A model generated the notes under the pieces. That model was not told the DNA's origin. It saw nothing but the letters and a program-made list of their open reading frames with translations, and made no database searches. Positions 3,636 through 48,980 of a stretch of 52,322 nt of DNA are shown piece by piece. This DNA is from a bacterium (GTDB lineage: Bacteria; Patescibacteriota; Minisyncoccia; UBA6257; UBA9933). How positions within the stretch are numbered: the stretch's first letter is position 1; each line of letters begins with the position of its first letter. The translations under genes and the position numbers were made by a program. The stretch covers positions 1 through 52,322 of the forward strand of contig JAJYNK010000011.1 of assembly GCA_021786355.1 (NCBI GenBank). The letters run 5' to 3'.

Positions 3636-3685
3636 ATGATAAATAATAGCTGCCAGTGATTGGTCGCTGGTGGAAATAAGACAGC

Positions 3686-3716
3686 AAAAGGCGGTCGCCT
3701 AAGCGACCGCCTTTTG
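3686..3716 (+). terminator. rho-independent terminator
   Basis: AAAAGGCGGTCGC-CTAA-GCGACCGCCTTTT: a 13-bp stem, a tetraloop and a T-run, about 50 nt after the stop at 3635. Confidence 0.75.
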
Positions 3717-3743: not shown

Positions 3744-3879
3744 ACCCCGCACCTTTAAAGGATATTGCACCTCGCTATTTTTTTATCAAACCAGAATTTA
3801 ATATTTAAAATAACTAGTTTATAATAAGGATTATGCAAAAAGGCGCATCTAAAAATACAATCCTTTAAAGGTGCGGGGT
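3744..3879. repeat. 20-bp perfect inverted repeat enclosing a 96-nt AT-rich spacer
   Basis: ACCCCGCACCTTTAAAGGAT (3744-3763) and its exact reverse complement (3860-3879). The right arm ends 26 nt before the ftsK ATG. Confidence 0.85.
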
Positions 3880-3905
3880 AAAATGATAGAATTGATTTTA
3901 GTAAA

Positions 3906-6032
3906 ATGTCCAATAAAAAAAATAAGAAGAATAAAAAAAACGCAAAATCTTTATCAAACGAGGAGGCGGAAAACGAAGCAAAACAATCAAGGCTTCATCC
4001 CGATACTAAAAAAAGCGTGTTCGCTATAGGTTTTTTGGCATTGGCGCTTATTTTAATTTTAGCGAGATTCGGAAACGCCGGTCCGGTCGGCGACTACGCG
4101 TATAATTTTTTTAACTGGCTTTTTGGCGTGGGCTATTTTCTTCTGCCGCTTATTCTTATAATAATGTCGGTTGTTTTTTTAACTTCAGAAAGGAGAAAAA
4201 TTTACGGAATTACTTTTATCGGCGCTATTATTTTTGTTTTGTCGAGCTTGGGGTTGATAGATATTTTTTATTCCGATAAAGCCGGAATTTTCGGCTGGCT
4301 AGTCGGCTCCATCGAGTCGTTGTTTGGTCGGGTTGCTTCGATAATTATTGTTGTCGCGATGATAGTCGCGTCATTTTTAGTAACTTTGAATTTGCCCATA
4401 AAAATAAGAAGAAGGCCCAAAGAATCGATTTTGGAATCAGAGGTTAGCTGGGAAGAAGAAAATAAACAGGAGAGTTCTGAAGCTAAACAGCCAGCCGAAA
4501 AAAGCGAAAACGATGTTCAAGGGGAAACAGCTGAAGAAATAGAGCCGAAAGTGGAAGTAAAAGAAAGATTCGCTTTGCCTTTTTCGCGTCCAGCTAAAAT
4601 TCAAACCAGCCGGGCGCCCGCTAATTATATTTTCCCGCCTCTGGATTTATTAAAGTCTTCTGTTGAAAAACCGACTTCCGGCGATCTTCGCGCTAACGCA
4701 AATATTATTAAAAGAACTCTGGACAGCTTCGGTATTCCGGTGGAAATGGGGGAAATAAATGTCGGTCCCAAAGTAACGCGTTACACTCTGAAACCCGCTG
4801 AAGGCGTGAAGCTTACTAGAATAACCGCCTTGTCTTCCGATTTATCCATGGCTTTAGCCGCGCACCCAATAAGAATAGAAGCGCCGATTCCGGGAAAATC
4901 ATTGGTTGGAATTGAAGTCCCTAACAAGGCCGCTTCAATTGTCCGTTTGGGGAGCTTGATGGCGTATCCGGAGTTTTCCGCAGCCGGGTCACTGGGCTTC
5001 GCGCTCGGCAGAGACGTTACCGGCGAGCCGATTTTCGCCAATATAGAAAAAATGCCTCATATGCTTGTTGCCGGATCAACCGGAAGCGGAAAAAGCGTTT
5101 CCATTCATTCGCTTTTAATATCACTTTTGTATAAAAATTCTCCCGATAATTTAAAAATGATTTTAATCGATCCCAAACGGGTCGAACTTACGGCCTACTC
5201 GGGGATTCCGCATTTGATAGCTCCTGTGGTAACCGAATCTAAAAAATCTTTGGGGGTTTTTAAATGGGCGCTTAAAGAAATGGACGGCCGCTATGAAATG
5301 CTGGAAAGCGCCGGTTCTCGCGACATTAAAAGTTATAACAAAAAAAATCCAAACAGCCCTTTGCCTTTCATTATTATAGTAATTGACGAGCTAGCCGATT
5401 TAATGAGCACGTATGGCAGAGAAGTTGAAGGCTCTATTGTCCGGTTGGCGCAAATGGCAAGAGCCACCGGTATTCATTTAGTATTAGCTACGCAGAGGCC
5501 GTCGGTAGAAGTTATTACGGGCCTTATAAAAGCCAATATTACCACTAGAGTCGCTTTGCAAGTCGCCAGCCAAGTAGATTCCAGGACGATTTTAGATAGT
5601 TCCGGCGCTGAAAAACTTTTGGGCGGCGGCGATATGCTTTATATATCCAGCGATCTTTCCAAGCCAAGAAGAATTCAGGGCGCGTATGTGTCCGAAGAAG
5701 AAATAAATAAAGTTACCCAATTTATAAGAGAAAATAACGGCGGTTACGATCATGAAGACGCGCCCACTTTTGAAAACGGCGCTTCATCGAATGCGATGAC
5801 GTCCGAAAGTTTATTTGATGGATTTGAAAATGACAACGACGACGAATTGCTTGAAGAAGCGATAGCCGTTATAACGGAAGCTCAAAAAGCGTCGGCATCT
5901 TTACTTCAAAGACGTTTGAAAGTGGGTTATGCTAGAGCTGCCCGGCTTCTGGATATAATGGAAGCCAAAAGTATTATTGGCCCTGGCGACGGGGCAAAAC
6001 CCCGCGAGGTTTACGTAAAAAGAGAAATTTAA
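3906..6032 (+). CDS. ftsK: DNA translocase FtsK/SpoIIIE
   Basis: N-terminal TM helices, a linker, a Walker A motif (GSTGSGKS), a Walker B motif (IIVIDELADL) and a C-terminal gamma wHTH (LLQRRLKVGYARAARLLD). Confidence 0.95.
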   Translation: MSNKKNKKNKKNAKSLSNEEAENEAKQSRLHPDTKKSVFAIGFLALALILILARFGNAGPVGDYAYNFFNWLFGVGYFLLPLILIIMSVVFLTSERRKIYGITFIGAIIFVLSSLGLIDIFYSDKAGIFGWLVGSIESLFGRVASIIIVVAMIVASFLVTLNLPIKIRRRPKESILESEVSWEEENKQESSEAKQPAEKSENDVQGETAEEIEPKVEVKERFALPFSRPAKIQTSRAPANYIFPPLDLLKSSVEKPTSGDLRANANIIKRTLDSFGIPVEMGEINVGPKVTRYTLKPAEGVKLTRITALSSDLSMALAAHPIRIEAPIPGKSLVGIEVPNKAASIVRLGSLMAYPEFSAAGSLGFALGRDVTGEPIFANIEKMPHMLVAGSTGSGKSVSIHSLLISLLYKNSPDNLKMILIDPKRVELTAYSGIPHLIAPVVTESKKSLGVFKWALKEMDGRYEMLESAGSRDIKSYNKKNPNSPLPFIIIVIDELADLMSTYGREVEGSIVRLAQMARATGIHLVLATQRPSVEVITGLIKANITTRVALQVASQVDSRTILDSSGAEKLLGGGDMLYISSDLSKPRRIQGAYVSEEEINKVTQFIRENNGGYDHEDAPTFENGASSNAMTSESLFDGFENDNDDELLEEAIAVITEAQKASASLLQRRLKVGYARAARLLDIMEAKSIIGPGDGAKPREVYVKREI

Positions 6033-6765: not shown

Positions 6766-7779
6766 ATGGCGCAAAAAAAAGAAGACAAAAAAACCACTGG
6801 CGGATCAAAAGACATAGACGAGCTTTTAGAATCGCTTCAAGGTAAATTTGGCGAAGGAGCGATAATGAAGCTTGGCGACGCAAAAAAAATAAATGTTTCG
6901 GTTGTGCCGACCGGTTCATTTTCGCTTGATTTGGCTTTAGGGGTTGGCGGTTTTCCCAGAGGAAGAATTGTCGAGATTTTCGGGCCGGAATCATCCGGTA
7001 AAACCACTCTTGCTTTGCACGCGGTCGCCGAAGCGCAAAAAAAAGGAGGCAGGGCGGCTTTTATCGACGCCGAGCACGCGATGGATCCTGATTACGCCAA
7101 GCGTTTGGGGGTAAAAATAAACGATCTTTTGATATCCCAGCCAGACAGCGGAGAAGAGGCGCTTAATATTTTGGAAAATCTGGTGCGTTCGGGAATTATA
7201 GATATTATTGTTATTGACTCGGTTGCGGCGCTCACACCCAAAGCGGAGATAGAAGGAGAAATGGAACAGCAGTCGATAGGCCTTCAAGCGCGGCTAATGT
7301 CCAAAGCGCTTAGAAAAGTTACGGCCTTGGCGCACAACACCAATACCTTGATAATTTTTATAAACCAGCTTCGGGAAAAAATCGGAATAATGTTTGGTAA
7401 TCCCGAAACAACTCCAGGCGGACGGGCTTTAAAATTTTATTCTTCGGTTAGAGTCGACGTTAGGCGAACGGCGCAAATAAAAAAAGGCGACGAGGCTGTG
7501 GGTAATCGCGTTACTGCTAAAGTGGTAAAAAATAAAGTTGCCGCGCCTTTTAGAATGGCGGAATTCGATATTTTATTCGGCCAGGGGATTTCTTATGAAG
7601 GCGATGTTTTAACAGCCGCTATTAAATACGGTTCAGTTGCTAAAACCGGAAATACTTATATATTCGACGGAGAAAAGTTGGGCGTCGGATTTGACGCCTC
7701 CCGCGAAAAACTCAAAGAAGACAAAAAACTCGTGGAAGAAATAAAAAAGAAAACCCTGGCGGTAATCTCTGGAAAATGA
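6766..7779 (+). CDS. recA: recombinase RecA
   Basis: Canonical RecA sequence ([30 protein letters not shown]). Confidence 0.98.
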
Positions 7780-7830
7780 TGATTTGTTGATAAAATTAAA
7801 AAATTATTTTTGCGCTAATATAATTTTCTC

Positions 7831-7862
7831 CTCGTTTATCCCACGATCGTTGGATAAACGAG
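7831..7862. promoter_or_regulatory. 32-bp palindrome with ACGATCGT core, upstream flank of cassette A
   Basis: CTCGTTTATCC-c-ACGATCGT-t-GGATAAACGAG, 30/32 symmetric. It lies just downstream of a TATAAT at 7819-7824 and 24 nt before the ATG at 7886. Confidence 0.7.
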
Positions 7863-7885
7863 TAAAAGAAAATTAAATAAAAAAC

Positions 7886-8461
7886 ATGAAAAAAGGAGAA
7901 ATTACCTTAAAAGCTCTCGAAGCCATAGGAGATACCGCAATAAATTTTTTTGACCTTATGGTTGTAATTATGGGCTCAAGGTACGGCGCCTCGTATGGCG
8001 AACTGGATTTTGAATTTAGAAAAAGACAATTCGAAAGAGAAGTAGAAGCAGGAAAACAATTAGAGAAGCAAAAATTTTACGACTTGGTTTATCGGCTTAA
8101 AAAGCAGGGATTAATACAAGAGAAAGAAAGTAAATTTAAATTAACGAAATTAGGATTTGAGAAGTTAAAATTTTTAAAAGAAAGGAAAAAAGAAAGTTTG
8201 CCAACTAATGATTTCCCTGCGGAAAAAGGAAATAATTTTTGTATCGTGATTTTTGATGTTCCTGAAGCCGAAAGAAGAAAAAGGGACTGGCTAAGAGATT
8301 CCTTGGGTCATCTCGGATTAAAAATGATTCAAAAAAGCGTTTGGATCGGCAAAGTAAAAATACCCAAACCATTTTTGAATAGTTTGTTTAAATTAAAAAT
8401 GTTGGATTACGTAGAAATTTTTGAAATTACCAAAGCCGGTAGTTTAAAGCACGTAGTCTAG
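7886..8461 (+). CDS. winged-helix + Cas2/PaaX-like ferredoxin-fold domain protein (paralog A)
   Basis: C-terminal block FCIVIFDVPEAERRKRDWLRDSLGHLGLKMIQKSVWIGK…YVEIFEITKAGSLK has the Cas2/PaaX pattern (beta1 hhhhFD[IV]PE, helix, QKSVW). The N-terminal half has wHTH-like YRLKKQGLIQEKESKFKLTKLG. Paralogs are at 36328 and 46648. Confidence 0.6.
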   Translation: MKKGEITLKALEAIGDTAINFFDLMVVIMGSRYGASYGELDFEFRKRQFEREVEAGKQLEKQKFYDLVYRLKKQGLIQEKESKFKLTKLGFEKLKFLKERKKESLPTNDFPAEKGNNFCIVIFDVPEAERRKRDWLRDSLGHLGLKMIQKSVWIGKVKIPKPFLNSLFKLKMLDYVEIFEITKAGSLKHVV

Positions 8462-8492
8462 TAGTACGAACCGTAATTTGATAGTTTCAGCT

Positions 8493-8534
8493 AAAAACTC
8501 GTTTATTCTACGATCGTAGAATAAACGAGTTTTT
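8493..8534. promoter_or_regulatory. 42-bp perfect palindrome with ACGATCGT core, downstream flank of cassette A (also terminator-like)
   Basis: AAAAACTCGTTTATTCTACGA|TCGTAGAATAAACGAGTTTTT. Each half is the exact reverse complement of the other, and the A5/T5 flanks give bidirectional terminator geometry. Confidence 0.75.
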
Positions 8535-8550
8535 GAATTAAGTTATTTTT

Positions 8551-8579
8551 TTGAAAAAAGAGTTAATTAGAATTATACT
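8551..8579 (+). promoter_or_regulatory. sigma70-like promoter, probably giving a leaderless transcript for the 8586 gene
   Basis: TTGAAA (8551-8556), a 17-nt spacer, TATACT (8574-8579), then 6 nt to the ATG at 8586. Confidence 0.45.
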
Positions 8580-8585
8580 ACTCCT

Positions 8586-9914
8586 ATGAAATTCATTGCC
8601 GACTTTCATATTCACTCCAAATACTCCCGAGCCACCAGCAAAGATATGGTTTTGGAAGAGCTTGACCGCTGGGCGGATGACAAAGGAATTTTAGTAATGG
8701 GAACCGGTGACTTTACACATCCTGTCTGGTTTAACGAAATTAAAACCAAACTCGATCCCGCCGAGGCGGGGCTCTATAAATTAAAAAAAGAACTGAAACT
8801 TCCCACCATAAAAGAAACTTTCAGCGATACGCGTTTTATTTTAACCGCGGAAATTTCCGGAATTTACAGCCGCGGGGGGAAAACAAGAAGAATACATAAT
8901 ATACTTTTTTCTCCAAGTATCGAGGTTGTAGAGAAAATTAACAGCGCGCTTGGAGCGATCGGAAATTTAAAATCCGACGGCCGGCCGATTTTGGGCCTGG
9001 ATAGCGAAAAGCTGGCGGAAATTGTTTTTAATATAGACGAAAATATCGTTATTATTCCGGCTCACGCTTGGACTCCGTGGTTTTCAATTTTCGGTTCGAT
9101 GTCAGGGTTTGATTCCATCGAAGAATGCTTCGGTAAATACGCAGATAAAATTTTTGCCATAGAAACCGGGCTTTCAAGCGACCCGGCGATGAATTGGCGG
9201 TTGTCTAAGCTAGACAAAATTGCTTTGATTTCTAATTCCGATTCGCACTCTTTGCAGAAAATTGGCAGAGAGGCGAATATATTGGATACGGAACTTTCTT
9301 ACGAGGGGGTTGTAAAGGCGATTAAAAATGGAGCTCCCGCTAACCGGAAACAAACATCCGATAATAAACAACAAAATTTTGTTGCCACGTTGGAATTTTT
9401 TCCCGAAGAAGGAAAATACCACTATGACGGCCACCGTGTTTGCGGAGTCGTTTTTTCTCCGGACGAAACAAAAAAACACAACGGAATTTGTCCGGTATGC
9501 AAACGGCCGCTTACGGTGGGGGTTGTTTATAGAGTTGATCAACTTGCGGACGCGAAACCGGAAGTTATAAATGAAGGCAATTACCATTATTTTGACAATC
9601 GCGTTCCTTATTATAATCTCGTGTCTTTGGATGAGATTATCAGCGAGGCTTTTGGCGTGGGAACGGCTTCCAAAAAAGTTAAAGAAGCCTACTTGGATTT
9701 GATAAAAAAATTCGGCTCGGAATTGAAAATTCTTTTGGAAACGAGCGTTGAGGAATTAAAAAAATCTATCGACCCAATGATTGTCGAAGGCATTAAACGG
9801 GCGCGTGAAGGAAAAATTAAAATCCGGCCCGGCTATGACGGTGAGTACGGCGAAGTAAAAATATTTAATGACGGCGAAAGAGAAAAAATGAAAACCCAGC
9901 AGGCATTGTTTTAA
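8586..9914 (+). CDS. PHP-domain endonuclease Q-like protein
   Basis: An N-terminal PHP motif (FIADFHIHSKYSRATS), further His/Asp motifs (PAHAWTPWF, SNSDSHS) and a Cys cluster (CGVVFSP…CPVCKRPLTVGV), as in the EndoQ family. Confidence 0.7.
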   Translation: MKFIADFHIHSKYSRATSKDMVLEELDRWADDKGILVMGTGDFTHPVWFNEIKTKLDPAEAGLYKLKKELKLPTIKETFSDTRFILTAEISGIYSRGGKTRRIHNILFSPSIEVVEKINSALGAIGNLKSDGRPILGLDSEKLAEIVFNIDENIVIIPAHAWTPWFSIFGSMSGFDSIEECFGKYADKIFAIETGLSSDPAMNWRLSKLDKIALISNSDSHSLQKIGREANILDTELSYEGVVKAIKNGAPANRKQTSDNKQQNFVATLEFFPEEGKYHYDGHRVCGVVFSPDETKKHNGICPVCKRPLTVGVVYRVDQLADAKPEVINEGNYHYFDNRVPYYNLVSLDEIISEAFGVGTASKKVKEAYLDLIKKFGSELKILLETSVEELKKSIDPMIVEGIKRAREGKIKIRPGYDGEYGEVKIFNDGEREKMKTQQALF

Positions 9915-11127: not shown

Positions 11128-11523
11128 ATGGCGAGCGATTTTAAGGATTTGAAAATTTGGCAGGAAGCTTATCGTTTGTCTCTCGCGGTTTATAAAATAA
11201 CTGCAAAATTTCCCACAGAAGAAAAATTTTCATTGGTTGATCAGCTTCGGCGTTCAAGTATTTCAGTAGCGGCAAACATAGCAGAGTCAGCAGGTAGGTA
11301 TCATGGCAAAGACAAGATAAACCTATTAATTATAGCCAGAGGCTCGATTTGTGAAACAAGAAGCCATTTATTAATCGCATTGGGATTGAAATATTTAAGC
11401 AAAGAAAAATCTGAAGAACTGGAAAATGATTATGAAATTTTATCTAAACAAACAAATTCATTTATCGGATTTTTAAAGAAGCAAAAATCAACCAACCAAC
11501 TAACTAACCAATTAACCAACTAA
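11128..11523 (+). CDS. four-helix-bundle protein (23S rRNA intervening-sequence protein family)
   Basis: DLKIWQEAYRLSLAVYKIT…FSLVDQLRRSSISVAANIAES is typical of this family. The ATG at 11128 is preferred over the TTG at 11116. The C-terminal STNQLTNQLTN is encoded by a tetramer repeat. Confidence 0.75.
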   Translation: MASDFKDLKIWQEAYRLSLAVYKITAKFPTEEKFSLVDQLRRSSISVAANIAESAGRYHGKDKINLLIIARGSICETRSHLLIALGLKYLSKEKSEELENDYEILSKQTNSFIGFLKKQKSTNQLTNQLTN

Positions 11524-11533
11524 CTAATTAACT
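11490..11533 (+). repeat. AAYY tetramer array (11 units) spanning a CDS 3' end, its stop codon and the spacer
   Basis: AACC AACC AACT AACT AACC AATT AACC AACT AACT AATT AACT. Confidence 0.85.
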
Positions 11534-29642: not shown

Positions 29643-29684
29643 AACTCCTAACTCCTAACTACTAACTACTAGCTACTAGCTACT
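29643..29684. repeat. six-unit heptamer array filling the gatC|gatA spacer
   Basis: AACTCCT x2, AACTACT x2, AGCTACT x2. On the coding (-) strand this reads TAGTAGC x2, TAGTAGT x2, TAGGAGT x2, then TGAA-ATG, which gives repeated stops and an AGGAG RBS. Confidence 0.9.
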
Positions 29685-29979
29685 ATTCAAAAACAGGGGG
29701 TATTTTCAAAAAATCACCTTCTTTTTCAGGAAATAAATTTATTAGTGCTTCCCGACTTTTCGCCAAGTCTTGATTTATTTCATCTTCTCTTGTCATGTTT
29801 TTCAAATCGGTTCCGCCGGCCATTGGGGGAATTTTTTTAGTATCCAGCGCCTGAAGCTCTTCAAAATAATTAAGGATTTTTTTAAGATCTTCAACGAGTT
29901 TATCCTCTTCTTTTTCGGTTATTTTTATTCTGGCCAAATCTGCCAGATGTTCCAAGGTTTTTTTGTCTATTTGAGCCAT
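29683..29979 (-). CDS. gatC: Glu-tRNA(Gln) amidotransferase subunit C
   Basis: 98 aa with a typical GatC sequence (LADLARIKITEKEEDKL…) and position upstream of gatA. Confidence 0.85.
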   Translation of the reverse strand: MAQIDKKTLEHLADLARIKITEKEEDKLVEDLKKILNYFEELQALDTKKIPPMAGGTDLKNMTREDEINQDLAKSREALINLFPEKEGDFLKIPPVFE

Positions 29980-35564: not shown

Positions 35565-36257
35565 ATGTCAAAAAAATCGTTAACCGCAAAAAAGAAAACC
35601 CCGGACGTTGTTAATAAATTCACCGGCGGAAACTGGGTTTATACAAAAGAAGTAAAAGAACATTTTTTTAAGCCCAAAAATTTATTGTGGGAAAATCCTG
35701 ACAGCGCCAAATTCGACGCTGAAGGAATTGTTGGTTCTCCTGCTTGCGGCGATGTTATGCGCGTGTGGCTTAAAATCGATCCTAAAAAAGACAGGATTAT
35801 TGAATTCAAATGGCGGACATTCGGCTGCGCCAGCGCCATCGCCGCCACTTCCATGCTTTCGGTTATGGCAACCGAGAAAGGCGGCATGAAAATAGACAAA
35901 GCGTTAAAAATTAAGCCTAAAGATATAATGAAACGGCTCGGAGGGCTTCCGGACAGAAAAATTCACTGCTCGGTTTTGGGCGATAAAGCGCTTAGAGCGG
36001 CGATAAACGATTGGTTTAAAAAAACCGGCCAATACGAAAGAATTATCGTGGAAGGTTCACGAGTTATTGACCCGGACACTAAAGTCACGGAAGCGGACAT
36101 CGAATCCGCGGTTATCGAAGGTGTAAAAACAATCGAGGGCCTTCAAAAAAGGACAAAAGTCGGGATCGGAAATCCCGCGTGCCTCGACGAAGCCGAACAG
36201 CTACTGAGATTTTACAGGGAAAAGTATTTCGGGAAAGAAGTCTCATTAACCAATTAG
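35565..36257 (+). CDS. nifU: NifU-like Fe-S scaffold (IscU-like N-domain plus BFD-like [2Fe-2S] domain)
   Basis: GSPACGDVM, FGCASAIA and HCSVLG scaffold cysteines, with a C-terminal …VGIGNPACLDEAE… segment. Confidence 0.85.
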   Translation: MSKKSLTAKKKTPDVVNKFTGGNWVYTKEVKEHFFKPKNLLWENPDSAKFDAEGIVGSPACGDVMRVWLKIDPKKDRIIEFKWRTFGCASAIAATSMLSVMATEKGGMKIDKALKIKPKDIMKRLGGLPDRKIHCSVLGDKALRAAINDWFKKTGQYERIIVEGSRVIDPDTKVTEADIESAVIEGVKTIEGLQKRTKVGIGNPACLDEAEQLLRFYREKYFGKEVSLTN

Positions 36258-36279: not shown

Positions 36280-36317
36280 CTATCGGACTATTTGACGATC
36301 GTAAATTAGTACGATAG
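36280..36317. promoter_or_regulatory. 38-bp imperfect palindrome with ACGATCGT core, upstream flank of cassette B
   Basis: CTATCGGACTATTTG-ACGATCGT-AAATTAGTACGATAG. The arms are 12/15 complementary. It ends 10 nt before the ATG at 36328. Confidence 0.65.
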
Positions 36318-36327
36318 CATTAAGTAA

Positions 36328-36897
36328 ATGCGAGGAGAAAAACGGTTAAAAATTTTGGAATTTCTTTCAGAATCAACCCGCACAGCAGGAGATTTATTTT
36401 CTATTTTTACAATGCCGTACGGAACATCACTTTATAGGGGATTGAAAACAGCGGAAAGATATCATCAAGAACGAGAAAATAGAGAGATAGAAAGGAGAGA
36501 ACGGCTAAATTTCAACGATCTAATTTATAGATTAAGAAAAGACGATCTCGTAGAAGAATTTGGGGAAAAAAGAAAAAAATTTTTTCGCCTAACAGATAAG
36601 GGAAAAAATAGTTTGGCAAAGCTTGAGTTAAGAATATTAACTGATAATTACGAGATAAAAAGGGATAATTTAGTGAAAATTGTAGTTTTCGACATACCAG
36701 AGAAAAAAAGGAAAATGCGCGATTGGATCAGAAGAATATTAGTAAATTTGGAATTTAATATGCTCCAAAAAAGTGTTTGGATCGGCAAAACAAAAATTCC
36801 GGAAGAATTTATTAAACAACTTAGGAATCTAAACCTCTTGTCTTATGTGGAAATATTTGAGATAAGTAAAACTGGAAGTTTAAAGCAAATAAAATAA
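36328..36897 (+). CDS. winged-helix + Cas2/PaaX-like ferredoxin-fold domain protein (paralog B)
   Basis: VKIVVFDIPEKKRKMRDWIRRILVNLEFNMLQKSVWIGKTKIPEEFI…YVEIFEISKTGSLKQIK. Clear paralog of 7886-8461 and 46648-47232. Confidence 0.6.
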   Translation: MRGEKRLKILEFLSESTRTAGDLFSIFTMPYGTSLYRGLKTAERYHQERENREIERRERLNFNDLIYRLRKDDLVEEFGEKRKKFFRLTDKGKNSLAKLELRILTDNYEIKRDNLVKIVVFDIPEKKRKMRDWIRRILVNLEFNMLQKSVWIGKTKIPEEFIKQLRNLNLLSYVEIFEISKTGSLKQIK

Positions 36898-36904
36898 TTT
36901 TTAG

Positions 36905-36944
36905 CCTATCGGATTAATTCACGATCGTTAATTAATCAGATAGG
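36905..36944. promoter_or_regulatory. 40-bp imperfect palindrome with ACGATCGT core, downstream flank of cassette B
   Basis: CCTATCGGATTAATTC-ACGATCGT-TAATTAATCAGATAGG. The arms are 14/16 complementary and share CTATCGGA with the upstream flank. Confidence 0.65.
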
Positions 36945-36997: not shown

Positions 36998-37216
36998 ATG
37001 GAAGCTAAGGTTAAAGAAATTTTGAACAAAGTACGGCCGTATATTAAAATGCACGGAGGTGATGTTGTGTTTGTGGAAATTAAAGACAATGACGTTTTTT
37101 TACAGGTTTTTGGCGCTTGCAAAGATTGCCCTTTATCCGATTTAACTTATAATAAAATGATAGGGGGGCTTCTTAAAGAAGAAATTCCCGAAATTAAAAA
37201 AGTCGTTATAATATAA
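36998..37216 (+). CDS. NifU C-terminal (Nfu-type) Fe-S cluster carrier domain protein
   Basis: 72 aa. VRPYIKMHGGDVVFVEI…GACKDCPLS carries the CxxC motif. Confidence 0.8.
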   Translation: MEAKVKEILNKVRPYIKMHGGDVVFVEIKDNDVFLQVFGACKDCPLSDLTYNKMIGGLLKEEIPEIKKVVII

Positions 37217-44204: not shown

Positions 44205-44693
44205 ATGGCTGAAGCTGAAAAAATAAAAATTGGGTGGTTTTCGTTTTCCTGCTGTGAAGATAACACTATTGTGATGACCGAAGTTATGAATGACCACTGG
44301 CAAGAGTGGAAAAAGATTTTTGATTTCCGCCACGTTCGGGTTTTAAAATCCAAAAACATTTACGATGAGTTCGACATCGCTTTTATAGAAGGCGCGATCG
44401 CCTCTGATGAGCAAGAAACACAGCTAAAAGATATAAGAAGTCGTTCAAAAAAACTTGTAGCAGTGGGAGCTTGCGCGGTTGTGGGGCTTCCGGCCGGGCA
44501 ACGAAATAATTTTACCGAAGAACAAAACGCCAGTATTCAATTTTTGGTGGATAGATTTAAGGCGCTACCAAAAGTTTTGCGCGTTAAAGACGTGGTTAAG
44601 GTAGACGCGGAAATCCCGGGATGCCCGATGAGCCCGGATAATTTTTTAAAAGTTGTTAATGATTTAGTCGCGGAATTGCAAAAGCAAATTTAA
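44205..44693 (+). CDS. [NiFe] hydrogenase small subunit, minimal form (proximal cluster only)
   Basis: 162 aa. The NuoB/HoxY-like pattern is SFSCCEDN…FIEGA…VAVGACAV…IPGCP. There are no extra Cys clusters for medial or distal Fe-S centres. Confidence 0.78.
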   Translation: MAEAEKIKIGWFSFSCCEDNTIVMTEVMNDHWQEWKKIFDFRHVRVLKSKNIYDEFDIAFIEGAIASDEQETQLKDIRSRSKKLVAVGACAVVGLPAGQRNNFTEEQNASIQFLVDRFKALPKVLRVKDVVKVDAEIPGCPMSPDNFLKVVNDLVAELQKQI

Positions 44694-44810: not shown

Positions 44811-46109
44811 ATGCACTCATTCGATTTATCTTTAGAACACATCACAAAAATAGAAGGCAACGCCTCGCTTTCAGTTAAAGTTGAGGACGGCAAAGTTAAA
44901 GACGTTAATTTCAAGACAATGGAATATAAACGTTTTTTTACCGAAGCGATGAAGGGCAAGTCCATTGCCGCGCTTCCGGCGCATTTGGCGAGAATCTGCG
45001 GCACCTGTTCAAACGCGCACATTATTTGCAGTATTGAGGCGTGTGAAAACGCGCTTGGTATAAAAGCCAGTGAACAAACTAAAATACTTCGCGCTTTAAC
45101 TTTGCACGGGCTTATTATAAGAGACCACGCGCTTCATTTGTATTTATTTTCAATGCCCGATATTTACGGAAAAGACGCTTTTTTGGATTTTGACGAAAAT
45201 AACCCGGAAGAACACCAATTACTTCACGACGGATTTGAAGTGAAAGCCGCGGGAAATTTTTTGGCGACTTTGATTTCCGGAAGAAGCGTGCATGCCACTT
45301 ATCCGGCAGTGGGGGGATTTTTGCATTTTCCCGATAAATCCGGCATAGACGAAGCAATTAAAAAACTTCAATCAGTCCGGCCGGCGGTTTTACGCTTGAT
45401 AGAAATTTTTAAAAACGCGCCTTTTCATTTTGATCGCGAAACGCAATATATGGCATTAGTTCCGGAAAAAAGTTTCGGATATATAATTGGCGATATTAAA
45501 ACTAGTACTGGAGAAACCTACGAAGAAGAAAAGTTCAGAGACCATTTAGAACACGTTGTTTTGCCTTATTCTCAAGCGTCCGCGTATCAGTATGACGGCG
45601 ACGGGTATATGGTTGGCGCTCTGGCGCGCATAAATCTCGCTAAAGATTTGCTTCATCTGGAAACAAAAAAATCATTAAAATTACTTGGCGATATTTTAGA
45701 TCTTTTTCCTTCAACCGATGTTTTTTATAATAACCTTGCGCAGGCGATTGAGATCTTGCATTCTATTGACGAATCAATCGATTTGTTAAGCAATAATAAT
45801 TTTGTCCCAGAGCCGCTTATAAAAGCAGTGCCCCATGAAGGAGTGGGGATTGGAGTCATAGAAGCTCCGCGCGGAACTTTGTACCACAAGGTTGTTATCG
45901 GAGCTGACGGTGTGGCAAAAGAAGGGGAAGTAATAGTGCCAACCGGACAAAACCAAATAAACATAGAAAGAGACGTGGCGATATTGGTACAGAATCTTTT
46001 ACCCGACACGTCCAAAGAAAAAATTGAATTTGAAATAGAAAAACTTATCCGCGCGTATGATCCGTGCATGAGCTGCGCCGCGCATTTTTTGAAAGTGAAT
46101 TGGGAATAA
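44811..46109 (+). CDS. [NiFe] hydrogenase large subunit (group 3-like)
   Basis: An N-terminal RICGTCSNAH motif and a C-terminal DPCMSCAAH motif, followed by a 7-aa tail (FLKVNWE) suitable for endoprotease cleavage. Confidence 0.92.
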   Translation: MHSFDLSLEHITKIEGNASLSVKVEDGKVKDVNFKTMEYKRFFTEAMKGKSIAALPAHLARICGTCSNAHIICSIEACENALGIKASEQTKILRALTLHGLIIRDHALHLYLFSMPDIYGKDAFLDFDENNPEEHQLLHDGFEVKAAGNFLATLISGRSVHATYPAVGGFLHFPDKSGIDEAIKKLQSVRPAVLRLIEIFKNAPFHFDRETQYMALVPEKSFGYIIGDIKTSTGETYEEEKFRDHLEHVVLPYSQASAYQYDGDGYMVGALARINLAKDLLHLETKKSLKLLGDILDLFPSTDVFYNNLAQAIEILHSIDESIDLLSNNNFVPEPLIKAVPHEGVGIGVIEAPRGTLYHKVVIGADGVAKEGEVIVPTGQNQINIERDVAILVQNLLPDTSKEKIEFEIEKLIRAYDPCMSCAAHFLKVNWE

Positions 46110-46133
46110 TATTTGATGTATTATTCCCAATTC
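46097..46133 (+). terminator. hairpin overlapping the hydrogenase large-subunit stop codon
   Basis: GAATTGGGAATAAT-N9-ATTATTCCCAATTC, a 14-bp stem. The T-tail is weak, so terminator function is uncertain. Confidence 0.4.
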
Positions 46134-46164
46134 ATCCCGAACGAAAGGAGGGATCTCAGGATTA

Positions 46165-46545
46165 TTAAAGTTTAAGAATTGCGGTAATTATCGACGTAAT
46201 TTTTTCAATCGCTTTTTCTTGAGAAATCGTCGGCGGAATGCCGATGATTTTTATTTTTTTCAAACGGCCCAATTTTTCCAGATATCTTAAATTTGAATAA
46301 GCGTCAAAATCATGAAGCGAAACATTTGAAGATTTGGAAAAACTTTTTAAATCTTCAAATGTTTTAATTTCCTCAATCCCCAAGACCGTATCTATGATCG
46401 TAAGCTCTTCGGGTATTTCCCATTCTTCATTCGGATCTTTTATTTCAAATTTTATTTCTGGGAATTTTTTTTGGAGTTCCGGCAGAATTTTCAAGGGCAG
46501 AGAATCATTTTTAGTCTCCGGATTTCCAAAAACATATATTATCAT
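46165..46545 (-). CDS. hydrogenase maturation endopeptidase (HycI/HybD-like)
   Basis: 126 aa. VFGNPETKNDSLP, IIDTV and SLHDFD match the Glu/Asp-Asp-His metal-ligand spacing of this family. Sits next to the hydrogenase genes. Confidence 0.6.
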   Translation of the reverse strand: MIIYVFGNPETKNDSLPLKILPELQKKFPEIKFEIKDPNEEWEIPEELTIIDTVLGIEEIKTFEDLKSFSKSSNVSLHDFDAYSNLRYLEKLGRLKKIKIIGIPPTISQEKAIEKITSIITAILKL

Positions 46546-46586
46546 AAATATTTATAATAATAACATCACAGGACTTAGGACTATCG

Positions 46587-46630
46587 CAAAACATCGTATA
46601 TGTGACGACCGTCACATATACGATGTTTTG
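46587..46630. promoter_or_regulatory. 44-bp near-perfect palindrome (core ACGACCGT), downstream flank of cassette C
   Basis: CAAAACATCGTATATGTGAC-GACC-GTCACATATACGATGTTTTG, with 20-nt perfectly complementary arms. It lies about 40 nt upstream of the protease gene start. Confidence 0.7.
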
Positions 46631-46647
46631 GTAGTTTTAAAATGATT

Positions 46648-47232
46648 TCATGTCTTTAATTGTTTTAAACTGCCAGTTTTGCTTATTTCAAATATTTCAA
46701 CATACGGTAGAAGATCAAAATTTTTTAGATTGTGTATCAATTCTTCGGGAAGCTTTGTTTTTCCAATCCAAACACTTTTCTGCAACATTTTAAATTTCAA
46801 ATTTCTGAGAACCTCTCTTATCCACCCTCTTTTCTTCCTGTGCTTTTCTGGAATGTCAAATATTATAATTTTAAATGTATTTTCGTTTTCTATTTTATAT
46901 ACTTTTTGAGGAAACTCATTTGTTTTTCTTAAACGAAGATTTTCCAATTTCTCCGCGCCTTTTTTGGTTATTTGCAATGATTTTTTATTTTCTTTATTAA
47001 TATTTTCGATTAACCCCTCTTTTCTTAGGCGATATAATAGATCGTAAAAACGCAATTTTTCTTCGCGATCTATTTGTCGGCCTTCTCTTTCTCTTTGGCG
47101 GCGCGCTAAAAGTTTTAATCCTTTATTTAATGAAGTTCCATAGGGTAAGCTAAAAATAAAAAACACATTGCCTATGGTTTGAGCTGATTGTTCGAGGGTT
47201 TCTAATATTTTTAATCCATACTCTCCTTTCAT
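46648..47232 (-). CDS. winged-helix + Cas2/PaaX-like ferredoxin-fold domain protein (paralog C)
   Basis: FKIIIFDIPEKHRKKRGWIREVLRNLKFKMLQKSVWIGKTKLPEELI…YVEIFEISKTGSLKQLKT. The start at the ATG at 47232 is preferred, because the longer ORF runs through the upstream palindrome. Confidence 0.6.
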   Translation of the reverse strand: MKGEYGLKILETLEQSAQTIGNVFFIFSLPYGTSLNKGLKLLARRQREREGRQIDREEKLRFYDLLYRLRKEGLIENINKENKKSLQITKKGAEKLENLRLRKTNEFPQKVYKIENENTFKIIIFDIPEKHRKKRGWIREVLRNLKFKMLQKSVWIGKTKLPEELIHNLKNFDLLPYVEIFEISKTGSLKQLKT

Positions 47233-47245
47233 AATTATTATTTTA

Positions 47246-47277
47246 ATCGTATATCTGACGATCGTCAAATATACGAT
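47246..47277. promoter_or_regulatory. 32-bp palindrome with ACGATCGT core, upstream flank of cassette C
   Basis: ATCGTATATCTG-ACGATCGT-CAAATATACGAT. The arms are 11/12 complementary. It lies 14 nt from the ATG at 47232. Confidence 0.7.
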
Positions 47278-47313: not shown

Positions 47314-48051
47314 TTAAAGTGTTTGGTTGGCGAGTGTTAAATTCCGGAGCGTGTATTTTTTTAAATTTAAAACCTGTTCGTTTGTTATGACTTCGCAGAT
47401 TACGCCCCAGTGTATGGAAACGAGATTGCCAATGGCGACTTGTTCAATATCATATTCCGATTCAAGCTGGCGAACCAATTTTCTTTTTATGGGCGTTCCG
47501 ATAAAAAGTTTTTTATCTGTATATAAAAGCGGTTCGGTTAAAACGGTTATGAACGGGCCGTCTATTTCCATAACTTTTCCCCAACTCACGCGACACTCAT
47601 CCATAGTTTCAACCGTATGTTCGCGTTCATCGTGCCCGGTCCTTTTCCAAACGTTTAAAACATGGAAAGAATGGTGCGGAGCCGCGCCTCTGCCGATTTT
47701 ATCTTCAACGACGCTGAATGATTTGCCCCCCATTCGGTATTTTATTTTTTGTTCTTCCACGAGATGACGGTAAAAGCTTTTCTGATCTGTTTTTTCAAGC
47801 ATACTGTTTCCCAGCCAATATGCTTCAACTACTCTGTCGTCAAAAGGATCAGCAACCCCATTTATTCTTGATATATATTTTAGATAAGGATAAAGAGTTT
47901 GGAATTTTGAAATTAAATGCTCCAGGCCGGCGTCTTTGGCGCCTTCATTTATATAGGCCTTAATTTCGCTGTTTTTATTAGGGCCGCAATAATGCAATCT
48001 ATTAGGCCCGAAAGCGTATCGGCTGCAGCGCAAAATTCCATCCATCATCAT
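47314..48051 (-). CDS. hypothetical protein with a Cys-rich N-domain and a HypC/HupF-like C-terminal segment
   Basis: The N-terminus is GILRCSRYAFGPNRLHYCGP. The C-terminal …ECRVSWGKVMEIDGPF…VAIGNLVSIHWGVICEVITNEQ resembles HypC (MCxxxPGxVxxIDG…GDWVLVHxGFAIxxIxxxEA). It overlaps the upstream EamA gene by 4 nt. Confidence 0.5.
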   Translation of the reverse strand: MMMDGILRCSRYAFGPNRLHYCGPNKNSEIKAYINEGAKDAGLEHLISKFQTLYPYLKYISRINGVADPFDDRVVEAYWLGNSMLEKTDQKSFYRHLVEEQKIKYRMGGKSFSVVEDKIGRGAAPHHSFHVLNVWKRTGHDEREHTVETMDECRVSWGKVMEIDGPFITVLTEPLLYTDKKLFIGTPIKRKLVRQLESEYDIEQVAIGNLVSIHWGVICEVITNEQVLNLKKYTLRNLTLANQTL

Positions 48052-48980
48052 ATTGAAGATAATTTTTCCTGCGGGTTGACAAAGGCTTTATCAGCCGCTT
48101 TTTTGGAAAAAATAATCACAATAAAAGTTCCGAGAATAAAAAGCAGAGAACTAATTAGGTCGCGGACAGCGAAAGAATGAGTAATAAAAAGCGCCGATAA
48201 AACATTGGTGATTAAAGTCGCGGGGACAAGAAGTGTCGCTACGTACGTTGTCGGAGCGCGCTTGAGAGCCGCGTACCACGTTGTTACGTAACCGAATAAC
48301 AGCGCGCTGGTTAAAAGTATCCAGCCCCACTGGATTAAATTCAATGACGGGGTGGCAATTATTCCATTTTTTAAATAAAGAAAGGCGATAAGAATAATCG
48401 AGCCGATCGTCATTCGGGCAGACGCCACAATAGAACTTGATAAATCTCGGAGGGCTTTTTTGGCAATGATATTTTCAATCGCCCACAGCAACGTGGCGCC
48501 CAAAATCATCAATTCTCCCAAATTATATTTAAACCCGATAAAGCCCCCAATCAAAAGATTTGCCGCAAAAATCATTCCGACTCCAATCCATTGCCAGCGA
48601 CTTACCCGTTCTTTTAAAAACGGAATCGCCAAAACAAAGACCCATAAAAACAGAGTTTTGTGGATGAGAGCCGCGTTAATCGCGCTCGTTTTTGAAAGCC
48701 CGATAAAAAACAGGGCAAACGGCAATGATCCGCCGACAACGCCGATTAAAAATAATTTCAACCACTGGTTCTTTTTTAAAGATTTAATTTCCGGCCATTT
48801 TTTCAGTCCAGTCAAAACGCCGATAAGCAATATCGCAACTAAGCTATTTTTTAAAGTTGTGAAAAAAATCGGATCTTTGACCGTGGTTACCGCGATCTTA
48901 TTTATAAAATTGGTTAATCCGGAAATAAACGCGGTTGTCAGCGCGAGTATTGTCGCGTAGCGGAAATTTTTATTGCCCAT
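48048..48980 (-). CDS. EamA/DMT-family transporter
   Basis: 310 aa with about 10 TM helices in two repeated halves, typical of the EamA family. Confidence 0.82.
   Translation of the reverse strand: MGNKNFRYATILALTTAFISGLTNFINKIAVTTVKDPIFFTTLKNSLVAILLIGVLTGLKKWPEIKSLKKNQWLKLFLIGVVGGSLPFALFFIGLSKTSAINAALIHKTLFLWVFVLAIPFLKERVSRWQWIGVGMIFAANLLIGGFIGFKYNLGELMILGATLLWAIENIIAKKALRDLSSSIVASARMTIGSIILIAFLYLKNGIIATPSLNLIQWGWILLTSALLFGYVTTWYAALKRAPTTYVATLLVPATLITNVLSALFITHSFAVRDLISSLLFILGTFIVIIFSKKAADKAFVNPQEKLSSI

Follow-up and report, generated by a model that had tools for sequence, protein, structure and literature searches.

A small gene enclosed by two copies of its own palindrome

Why should a small gene for a putative DNA-binding protein lie between two copies of a long palindrome peculiar to it? 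The question is raised by a 52,322-nt stretch of patescibacterial DNA (contig JAJYNK010000011.1 of assembly GCA_021786355.1; "the window" hereafter means this whole stretch), in which paralog C, a 194-aa open reading frame (ORF) on the minus strand (46648-47232; ATG at 47232, stop codon at 46648-46650), stands between a 32-bp palindrome upstream (47246-47277) and a 44-bp palindrome downstream (46587-46630). This observation is confirmed. From sequence comparisons and by analogy with PaaX, we consider it reasonably probable that C and its paralogs of ~190 aa are local repressor-type regulators, a kind of mini-PaaX, each equipped with its own cognate palindrome.

The upstream palindrome reads ATCGTATATTTGACGATCGTCAGATATACGAT in the sense of the gene, has CGATCG at its center and is 95% complementary by a repeat search. 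Its downstream counterpart begins 17 nt past the stop codon and is centered on CGACCG, with arms at 46587-46607 and 46610-46630. The first-pass annotation of this locus had credited it with perfect arms of 20 nt: perfect they are (100% complementary, with 2 nt between them), but the repeat search gives their length as 21 nt. The outer arms ATCGTATA are common to both palindromes. A coincidental layout can be excluded: when the whole 52 kb is scanned for 36-bp palindromes that have no spacer and match at 14 or more of 18 positions, seven are recovered. Six of them are the flanks of C and of two further cassettes, A and B; the remaining one, at 3685-3716, is a terminator hairpin of the classical type. 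The same scan finds no orphan palindrome of the family in the window.

The two paralogs, recovered by tblastn, are B (36328-36897, 56% identical to C) and A (7886-8461, 43% identical), both on the plus strand. Cassette A (7826-8534) comprises a palindrome at 7826-7867, the gene and a perfect 42-bp palindrome at 8493-8534, and sits between recA (6766-7779) and a PHP-like gene (8586-9914). Cassette B (36280-36944), with palindromes at 36280-36317 and 36905-36944, is inserted between nifU_N (35565-36257) and nfu (36998-37216), in a string with the order iscS-nifU_N-B-nfu-ferredoxin-reductase. The initial suspicion that three loci built alike are no coincidence was well founded, as the gene-between-palindromes layout turned out to be family-wide.

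A winged helix joined to a PaaX_M/Cas2-like domain

All three paralogs match the Pfam model PaaX_M (PF20803) above its gathering score, with E-values of 2.9e-13 (C), 5.4e-15 (B) and 4.1e-14 (A). The Pfam Cas2 model (PF09827; cutoff 23.8 bits) is also matched, at 27.2 (C), 27.5 (B) and 24.2 (A) bits, and the TIGR01573 model for Cas2 (cutoff 24.5 bits) passes for A only (27.7 bits; C 22.8, B 23.6). In the N-terminal half there are sub-threshold Pfam matches to PadR/MarR-type winged helices, and the model of the PaaX N-terminal winged helix (PF07848) shows no match at E≤1. The PaaX equivalog model TIGR02277 attains 23.9 bits against a cutoff of 264.55, over model positions 41-155 only. No Pfam match to the PaaX_C effector domain is found, C ending at residue 194, a few residues past the PaaX_M-like domain. 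An AlphaFold model of C based on a 76-sequence alignment (predicted local distance difference test score, 82) presents a winged helix followed by a domain of beta-alpha-beta-beta-alpha-beta order; its fold matches in the PDB are PadR/LmrR winged helices, Escherichia coli PaaX (8a39) and Cas2, all of them weak because the two domains match separately. By its profile matches and predicted structure, paralog C thus joins a PadR-like winged helix to a PaaX_M/Cas2-like domain (FDIPE ... QKSVWxGK).

Homologs are ~190-200 aa long, come from Patescibacteria in all cases where the source is named, and are publicly labeled "hypothetical", "PaaX" or "CRISPR-associated endonuclease Cas2". When 1.84 billion cluster representatives are searched with a profile, 705 match at E≤1e-30, which puts the family at no fewer than 705 clusters at 50% identity; with the threshold relaxed to E≤1e-10 the number is 1909. 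The family profile finds nothing below E 0.1 among PDB sequences, and no description of the subfamily was found in the full-text literature on PaaX, Cas2-like proteins, transcription factors of the Candidate Phyla Radiation (CPR) and palindromic operators. This is probably a large, hitherto undescribed family of local gene regulators in Patescibacteria. Across the family alignments the Cas2-like half is far better conserved than the winged-helix half: F125, D126, P128, E129, R135, W137, Q151, S153, W155 and G157 are invariant, with R139 and K158 nearly so.

Palindromes with a common core and locus-specific arms

To the window and its orthologs we added 80 loci from species-representative genomes, all of them metagenome-assembled genomes (MAGs) of Patescibacteria, several with four or more copies of the gene; relatives are cited by locus labels (L001 and so on). 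The best palindrome was sought within 150 nt of either gene end at each locus. In the resulting 85-locus set convincing palindromes are present upstream in 56, downstream in 58 and on both sides in 44, so that the association of gene and palindromes is borne out by comparative genomics. Conversely, of 179 strong 32-bp palindromes in 684 kb of locus DNA, 125 are no more than 200 bp away from a family gene, and CGATCG forms the center of 103 of these.

The palindromes are 32-46 bp long, and 228 half-arms resolve into three zones. The core, positions 1-3 from the dyad (...CGA|TCG...), is nearly invariant, carries 1.6-1.8 bits and is followed by a purine at position 4; the linker (positions 5-10) differs even between the two palindromes of one locus; and the outer arm (positions 11-16) is specific to the locus and alike in both of its palindromes. 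Family-wide the arms hold less than 0.75 bits. Arm identity between upstream and downstream palindromes is 0.84 within a locus and 0.33 between loci, and for 98% of loci the two palindromes resemble each other more closely than do 95% of the pairs compared across loci; the arms are thus locus-specific, as had been noticed from the three cassettes of the window. Paralogs within a genome are 35-75% identical and have different arms.

Orthogroups retain function-specific neighbors, including xerC/D-like genes, Pyr_redox_2 genes and the nifU string. A XerC/D-like tyrosine recombinase gene lies upstream, co-directional and 51-206 bp away, in 11 of 75 loci (L015, L018, L022, L024, L026, L031, L033, L035, L044, L050 and L082). 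The family members at these loci are mutual best hits and hence form one orthogroup, whose arms end in ACTATCC or ACTATA. The neighbors of related loci (L004-L083) include UvrC (2), GIY-YIG (3), DNA ligase (2), MPG glycosylase, a DNA alkylation repair protein, PolA and TatD; there may be a DNA-repair theme in one clade of the family (compare copy A beside recA). A different type of palindrome (ACATTCYNACATTCT..AGAATGT..GAATGT) occurs away from family genes in three MAGs (L040 3399-3430; L045 7036-7067 and 7092-7123; L056 3107-3138), and is presumably the site of another regulator.

Predicted promoter overlap at the upstream palindrome

At cassette C a minus-strand promoter-like pair, TTGACG (47268-47263) and TAAAAT (47245-47240) with 17 nt between them, places the first hexamer within the palindrome and ends 8 nt before the ATG, from which a leaderless or nearly leaderless mRNA is to be expected. 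A promoter scan picks up this pair and, for B, TTGACG-17-TAGCAT at 36292-36320; in both C and B, then, the palindrome core supplies a -35-like TTGACG, and a -10-like hexamer ends 7-8 nt before the ATG. At A, the palindrome is directly preceded by a TTAAAA-17-TATAAT pair. Across the family TTGAC stands before the core more often in upstream palindromes (14 of 56) than in downstream ones (5 of 58), and the distances from dyad to ATG cluster at 25-39 nt, as expected of a -35 element at the dyad combined with a leaderless mRNA. An upstream palindrome laid over the gene's own promoter has, to judge from these motifs and from the PaaX precedent, the geometry of autorepression: E. coli PaaX shuts down its own promoter by binding TGATTC-N27-GAATCA, where it sterically hinders RNA polymerase (PMC9493321).

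Several genes of the window that lack a Shine-Dalgarno sequence have a predicted -10 hexamer ending just 6-8 nt ahead of the ATG (8551-8586, 47240-47232 and 36315-36328; for example TTGAAA-17-TATACT at 8551-8579 with the ATG at 8586), which suggests that leaderless mRNAs are frequent in the source organism.

Empty sites, solo palindromes and probable action in trans

The genes around C follow the minus-strand order first described: an EamA-family transporter gene at the head (48048-48980; Pfam E 2e-35), a gene for a 245-aa DUF6390 protein (47314-48051; Pfam E 2e-62), cassette C, and a gene for a 126-aa HycI/HybD-like hydrogenase maturation protease (46165-46545; a weak match, E 3e-4, below the Pfam threshold). 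Convergent with the last are the plus-strand genes for the small (44205-44693) and large (44811-46109) subunits of a NiFe hydrogenase. Two other statements about this neighborhood had to be given up. The protein encoded at 47314-48051 had been assigned a HypC-like C-terminus; the whole protein matches DUF6390 only, and its C-terminal 98 aa reach 13.2 bits (E 0.1) against the HupF/HypC model PF01455, whose cutoff is 28.5. The cassette had also been placed inside the hydrogenase-maturation gene string; it is not an intrinsic or conserved part of that string, as close relatives with DUF6390 proteins of 67-85% identity (L084, L094, L095) have no cassette here.

The layout around C is identical in the closest public genome (GCA_027423115.1), and C orthologs of 90% (L001) and 83% identity (L002) keep both synteny and palindromes. 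In L084 (DUF6390 67% identical) the protease gene follows directly after DUF6390 with no palindrome, and in L086 nifU_N and nfu are only 39 bp apart, which constitutes an empty site for B. At L092/L093, where DUF6390 is 86% identical, the C site holds a cassette whose protein is only 66% identical to C and whose outer arms are still ATCGTAT. The cassette is missing from L094/L095 (DUF6390 85% identical), where the 88 bp that separate DUF6390 from the protease gene contain a solo palindrome, CTATCGGACTATTTGACGATCGTGAATTAATACGATA, with B-type arms, its left arm equal to that upstream of B and its right arm closest to that downstream of B. The same assembly (GCA_021839875.1) encodes a B ortholog (L096), 91% identical to B of the window, in the nifU locus before nfu, flanked by matching B-type palindromes. 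With a solo B-type palindrome before the protease gene and the B protein elsewhere in the genome, the palindromes would appear to work in trans, with the protease gene as a likely regulatory target.

Further cognate palindromes point the same way. In L002 a third, perfect C-type palindrome lies past the protease gene, which is thus bracketed by C-type palindromes. In L016 and L019 a LexA-N-terminal-like winged-helix gene of ~150 aa, convergent to the family gene (4715-5215 and 3802-4251, respectively, both on the minus strand), has the downstream palindrome on one side and a third cognate one (5342-5373 and 4467-4498) on the other. A scan of the metagenome collection with the C-type arm pattern gives four matches: one is an orthologous locus, and the others are three orphan palindromes without a neighboring family gene (L088-L090). 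Such additional sites away from the genes are only a few in 684 kb. Local gene conversion cannot account for cognate arms that persist at unlinked sites; sequence-specific recognition can. The fast divergence of C relative to its neighbors, the empty sites and the composite solo palindrome also point to some turnover of cassettes.

A proposed mechanism and what weighs against it

We propose that each paralog most likely binds its own 32-46-bp palindrome as a dimer, with the Cas2-like domain as dimerization module, as in PaaX. Because the upstream palindrome overlaps the gene's own promoter, binding there should repress the gene. The other palindrome, past the stop codon, would be a second operator that forms a loop with the upstream one or, when bound, works as a roadblock. 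Cassette C would then be a gate between DUF6390 and the HycI-like protease gene, which are adjacent in relatives without it.

Several observations sit uneasily with this proposal. Among positions at which the four half-sites of a locus split two against two, 49 are symmetric inside each palindrome but unlike between the two palindromes, with 4 and 2 for the alternative patterns; a simulation of independent drift, subjected to the same detection procedure, gives 7:7:6. Such co-variation is more than a dimer reading half-sites would seem to require, and hints at hairpin/cruciform formation or a mutational bias: either such a structure plays a part, or the arms are homogenized by template-switch correction of quasi-palindromes. 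In L002 two convergent genes have between their ends a perfect palindrome with TTGACG on both strands, which weakens the -35 reading of this hexamer. The downstream palindrome is present at 17 of 28 loci with a convergent next gene versus 36 of 51 with a co-directional one, so that "operator of the next promoter" does not, by itself, explain it. As for the protein, the family lacks an effector domain, and the conservation of the Cas2-like half (D126, E129, R135, Q151 and others) exceeds what a scaffold would strictly need. Finally, arm similarity correlates only weakly with identity of the N-terminal half (rho 0.08; partial 0.086) and shows no signal with that of the C-terminal half; with a correlation this weak the reading of the arms cannot be assigned to either half of the protein.

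Alternative explanations

The downstream palindrome of C had at first been taken for an operator or activator site of the protease promoter. Operator remains the best description; that it is a site dedicated to the protease promoter, with C as its regulator, we regard as unlikely. Its dyad (46608/46609) is 63-64 nt from the protease ATG (46545), in agreement with the ~63 nt given originally, and the -10-like TATTAT/TATAAA reported just 5' of that ATG is present, although the promoter scan finds no complete -35/-10 pair and no -35 is recognizable. An activator-dependent promoter is therefore conceivable, and the palindromes directly before the protease gene in L094/L095 and around it in L002 also favor dedicated control. 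Against this, the downstream palindrome is general in the family regardless of the orientation of the next gene, which is convergent in 28 of the 80 loci with a called downstream ORF. Being nearly as frequent there, it belongs to the cassette and is not a protease-specific activator site. A co-directional next gene may overlap it or begin more than 400 nt away, and even among orthologs of the C locus the dyad is from ~43 nt (L092) to ~150 nt (L002) from the ATG. The PaaX precedent, moreover, is one of repression.

In a more elaborate and somewhat less probable possibility the protein would recognize an extruded hairpin or cruciform rather than linear duplex DNA, with the conserved Cas2-like domain on the invariant CGATCG tip and the variable winged helix on the locus-specific stem, and the unit could be excised to leave solo palindromes and be re-inserted at such solo sites through recombination across the core, making it an undescribed semi-mobile regulator-operator cassette that rewires operons.

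Doubtful to a slightly greater degree is an outright selfish or mobile cassette, spread by cleavage or recombination at the palindromes, with a Cas2-like nuclease acting on hairpins with a CGATCG tip, loosely in the manner of the IS200/IS605 or RAYT/REP systems. In its favor, otherwise adjacent genes are split, with empty sites for C (L084, L094/L095) and B (L086); in close relatives the same site holds no cassette or one that is 66%- or 83-100%-identical while DUF6390 stays 84-87% identical; the solo palindrome of L095 is what recombination across the core would be expected to leave; the arms co-vary like hairpin stems; an Asp and a Glu are invariant in the Cas2-like domain; and orphan palindromes exist. 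On the other hand, no genome has near-identical copies, and recent transposition is rejected in that no within-genome pair of paralogs is more than 75% identical. Position and orientation are conserved across long distances, all 11 of the 11 xer-adjacent loci being co-directional and the C locus stable down to 83% identity. No histidine is among the invariant or near-invariant residues listed above, so that no HUH motif is apparent, and the paralogs match no transposase model in the Pfam and TIGR scans. There are no relatives among viral contigs, orphans are absent from the 52-kb window and the pattern has just 4 matches in the whole metagenome collection, and the upstream palindrome has a promoter embedded in it.

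We attach equally little weight to the idea that the palindromes are protein-independent structures (cruciforms or RNA hairpins acting as terminators, insulators or mRNA ends) homogenized by gene conversion between copies 600 bp apart. The predicted hairpins are indeed very stable (-21.1 kcal/mol, z -8.9, for the downstream palindrome of C), runs of A and T border the palindromes downstream of C and A, with 46587-46630 flagged on the plus strand by a terminator scan, and both the compensatory co-variation of the arms and the occurrence between convergent genes are in keeping with it. Yet cognate arms recur at unlinked sites (the L095 solo palindrome versus L096; the orphans L088-L090), such palindromes are found almost exclusively beside this one gene family, and terminators elsewhere in the window are ordinary GC-rich hairpins (3685-3716 and 46096-46134). 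An RNA hairpin or terminator is rejected more specifically: most family palindromes have no T tract, and palindrome mismatches show no bias towards sense-strand G:U pairing (G:T 15, A:C 17).

That these are genuine CRISPR-associated Cas2 proteins, as some NCBI and JGI records name the homologs, can be dismissed with near certainty despite the just-over-threshold Pfam Cas2 matches of A, B and C and the TIGR01573 match of A: the protein is twice the length of Cas2, has an N-terminal winged helix and scores better with PaaX_M, a tandem-repeat scan finds no CRISPR-like array in the window, the Pfam-scanned neighbors of A, B and C and the hydrogenase/POR string are housekeeping rather than cas genes, and no cas family is among the most frequent neighbor families of the 80 loci.

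Relationship to known systems

The local-repressor reading finds its closest parallel in PaaX, which controls the phenylacetate catabolon of E. coli and Pseudomonas (PDB 8a39, 3L09). Common to both is a winged helix followed by a Cas2-like central domain. PaaX binds a long palindrome with widely spaced half-sites at its own promoter, and the sequence geometry of the family cassettes would fit binding of this kind. Unlike PaaX, the family has no C-terminal phenylacetyl-CoA-binding effector domain, and both the equivalog and the N-terminal models fail. No paa family is encoded next to A, B or C or is among the most frequent neighbors of the 80 loci. The family palindrome is contiguous, with a nearly invariant CGATCG core, two copies of it bracket the regulator gene, and the family has expanded, in Patescibacteria, to several divergent paralogs per genome. 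PaaX-like in its predicted working, and neither PaaX proper nor CRISPR Cas2 by model searches and gene neighborhood taken together, it appears to be a new variant of PaaX-type repressors.

With Cas2 the family shares the ferredoxin-like fold, the Asp of beta-1 (FDIPE), the QxSV(F/W) strand and a marginal Pfam match. Cas2 dimers lie along duplex DNA in Cas1-Cas2 complexes; the present proteins are fused to a winged helix and encoded away from cas1 or a CRISPR array, and a role in adaptation is implausible. PadR-family regulators such as LmrR offer the best fold match for the N-terminal 110 aa of C, but PadR dimerizes via a C-terminal helix and not a Cas2-like domain, and its operators are shorter. 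The IS200/IS605 and RAYT/REP elements are alike in having one small gene between two similar hairpin-forming palindromes, occasional orphans and stem-like co-variation; they differ in that the family is without an apparent HUH motif or identical multi-copy elements, has stable synteny and very few orphans, and possesses perfect, spacer-free palindromes that carry a promoter.

Other features of the neighborhood

A perfect hairpin with 16-nt arms (TGAATTGGGAATAATA / TATTATTCCCAATTCA) at 46096-46134 extends from the 3' end of the large-subunit gene into the gap before the protease gene, and is probably a bidirectional terminator; in L002 a C-type palindrome replaces it in the equivalent gap. A 26-bp AT-rich palindrome (TATTATCATAAATATT / AATATTTATAATAATA) at 46537-46562 overlaps the protease start codon. 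Short tandem repeats, AACCAACT x5.4 (11490-11532) and AACTACT x6.1 (29643-29685), lie in or near intergenic DNA, and no Rfam family is matched in the window.

In L085 (4001-5715) and L086 (4001-5810) DUF6390 is followed by genes for ~150 and ~130 aa with no adjacent hydrogenase genes, so that DUF6390 may serve metal-center maturation more broadly; in L086 it is divergent to the iscS-nifU string. In L084 (5312-6618) the NiFe large subunit is called as two ORFs of 142 and 261 aa, which could be due to a frameshift, a pseudogene or an assembly error.

Implications for the biology of Patescibacteria

The Patescibacteria, or CPR, have tiny genomes and almost no characterized transcription factors. 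If the proposal made here is true, their operators could be read directly from the genome, and solo palindromes would make regulons of uncultivated organisms predictable. Many "Cas2" annotations in CPR genomes would need correcting. The paralogs would furnish a natural set of orthogonal repressor/operator pairs, and the co-variation of the arms could point to a structure-dependent (cruciform) recognition of DNA. In the organism from which the window derives, expression of the hydrogenase maturation protease would be gated by paralog C.

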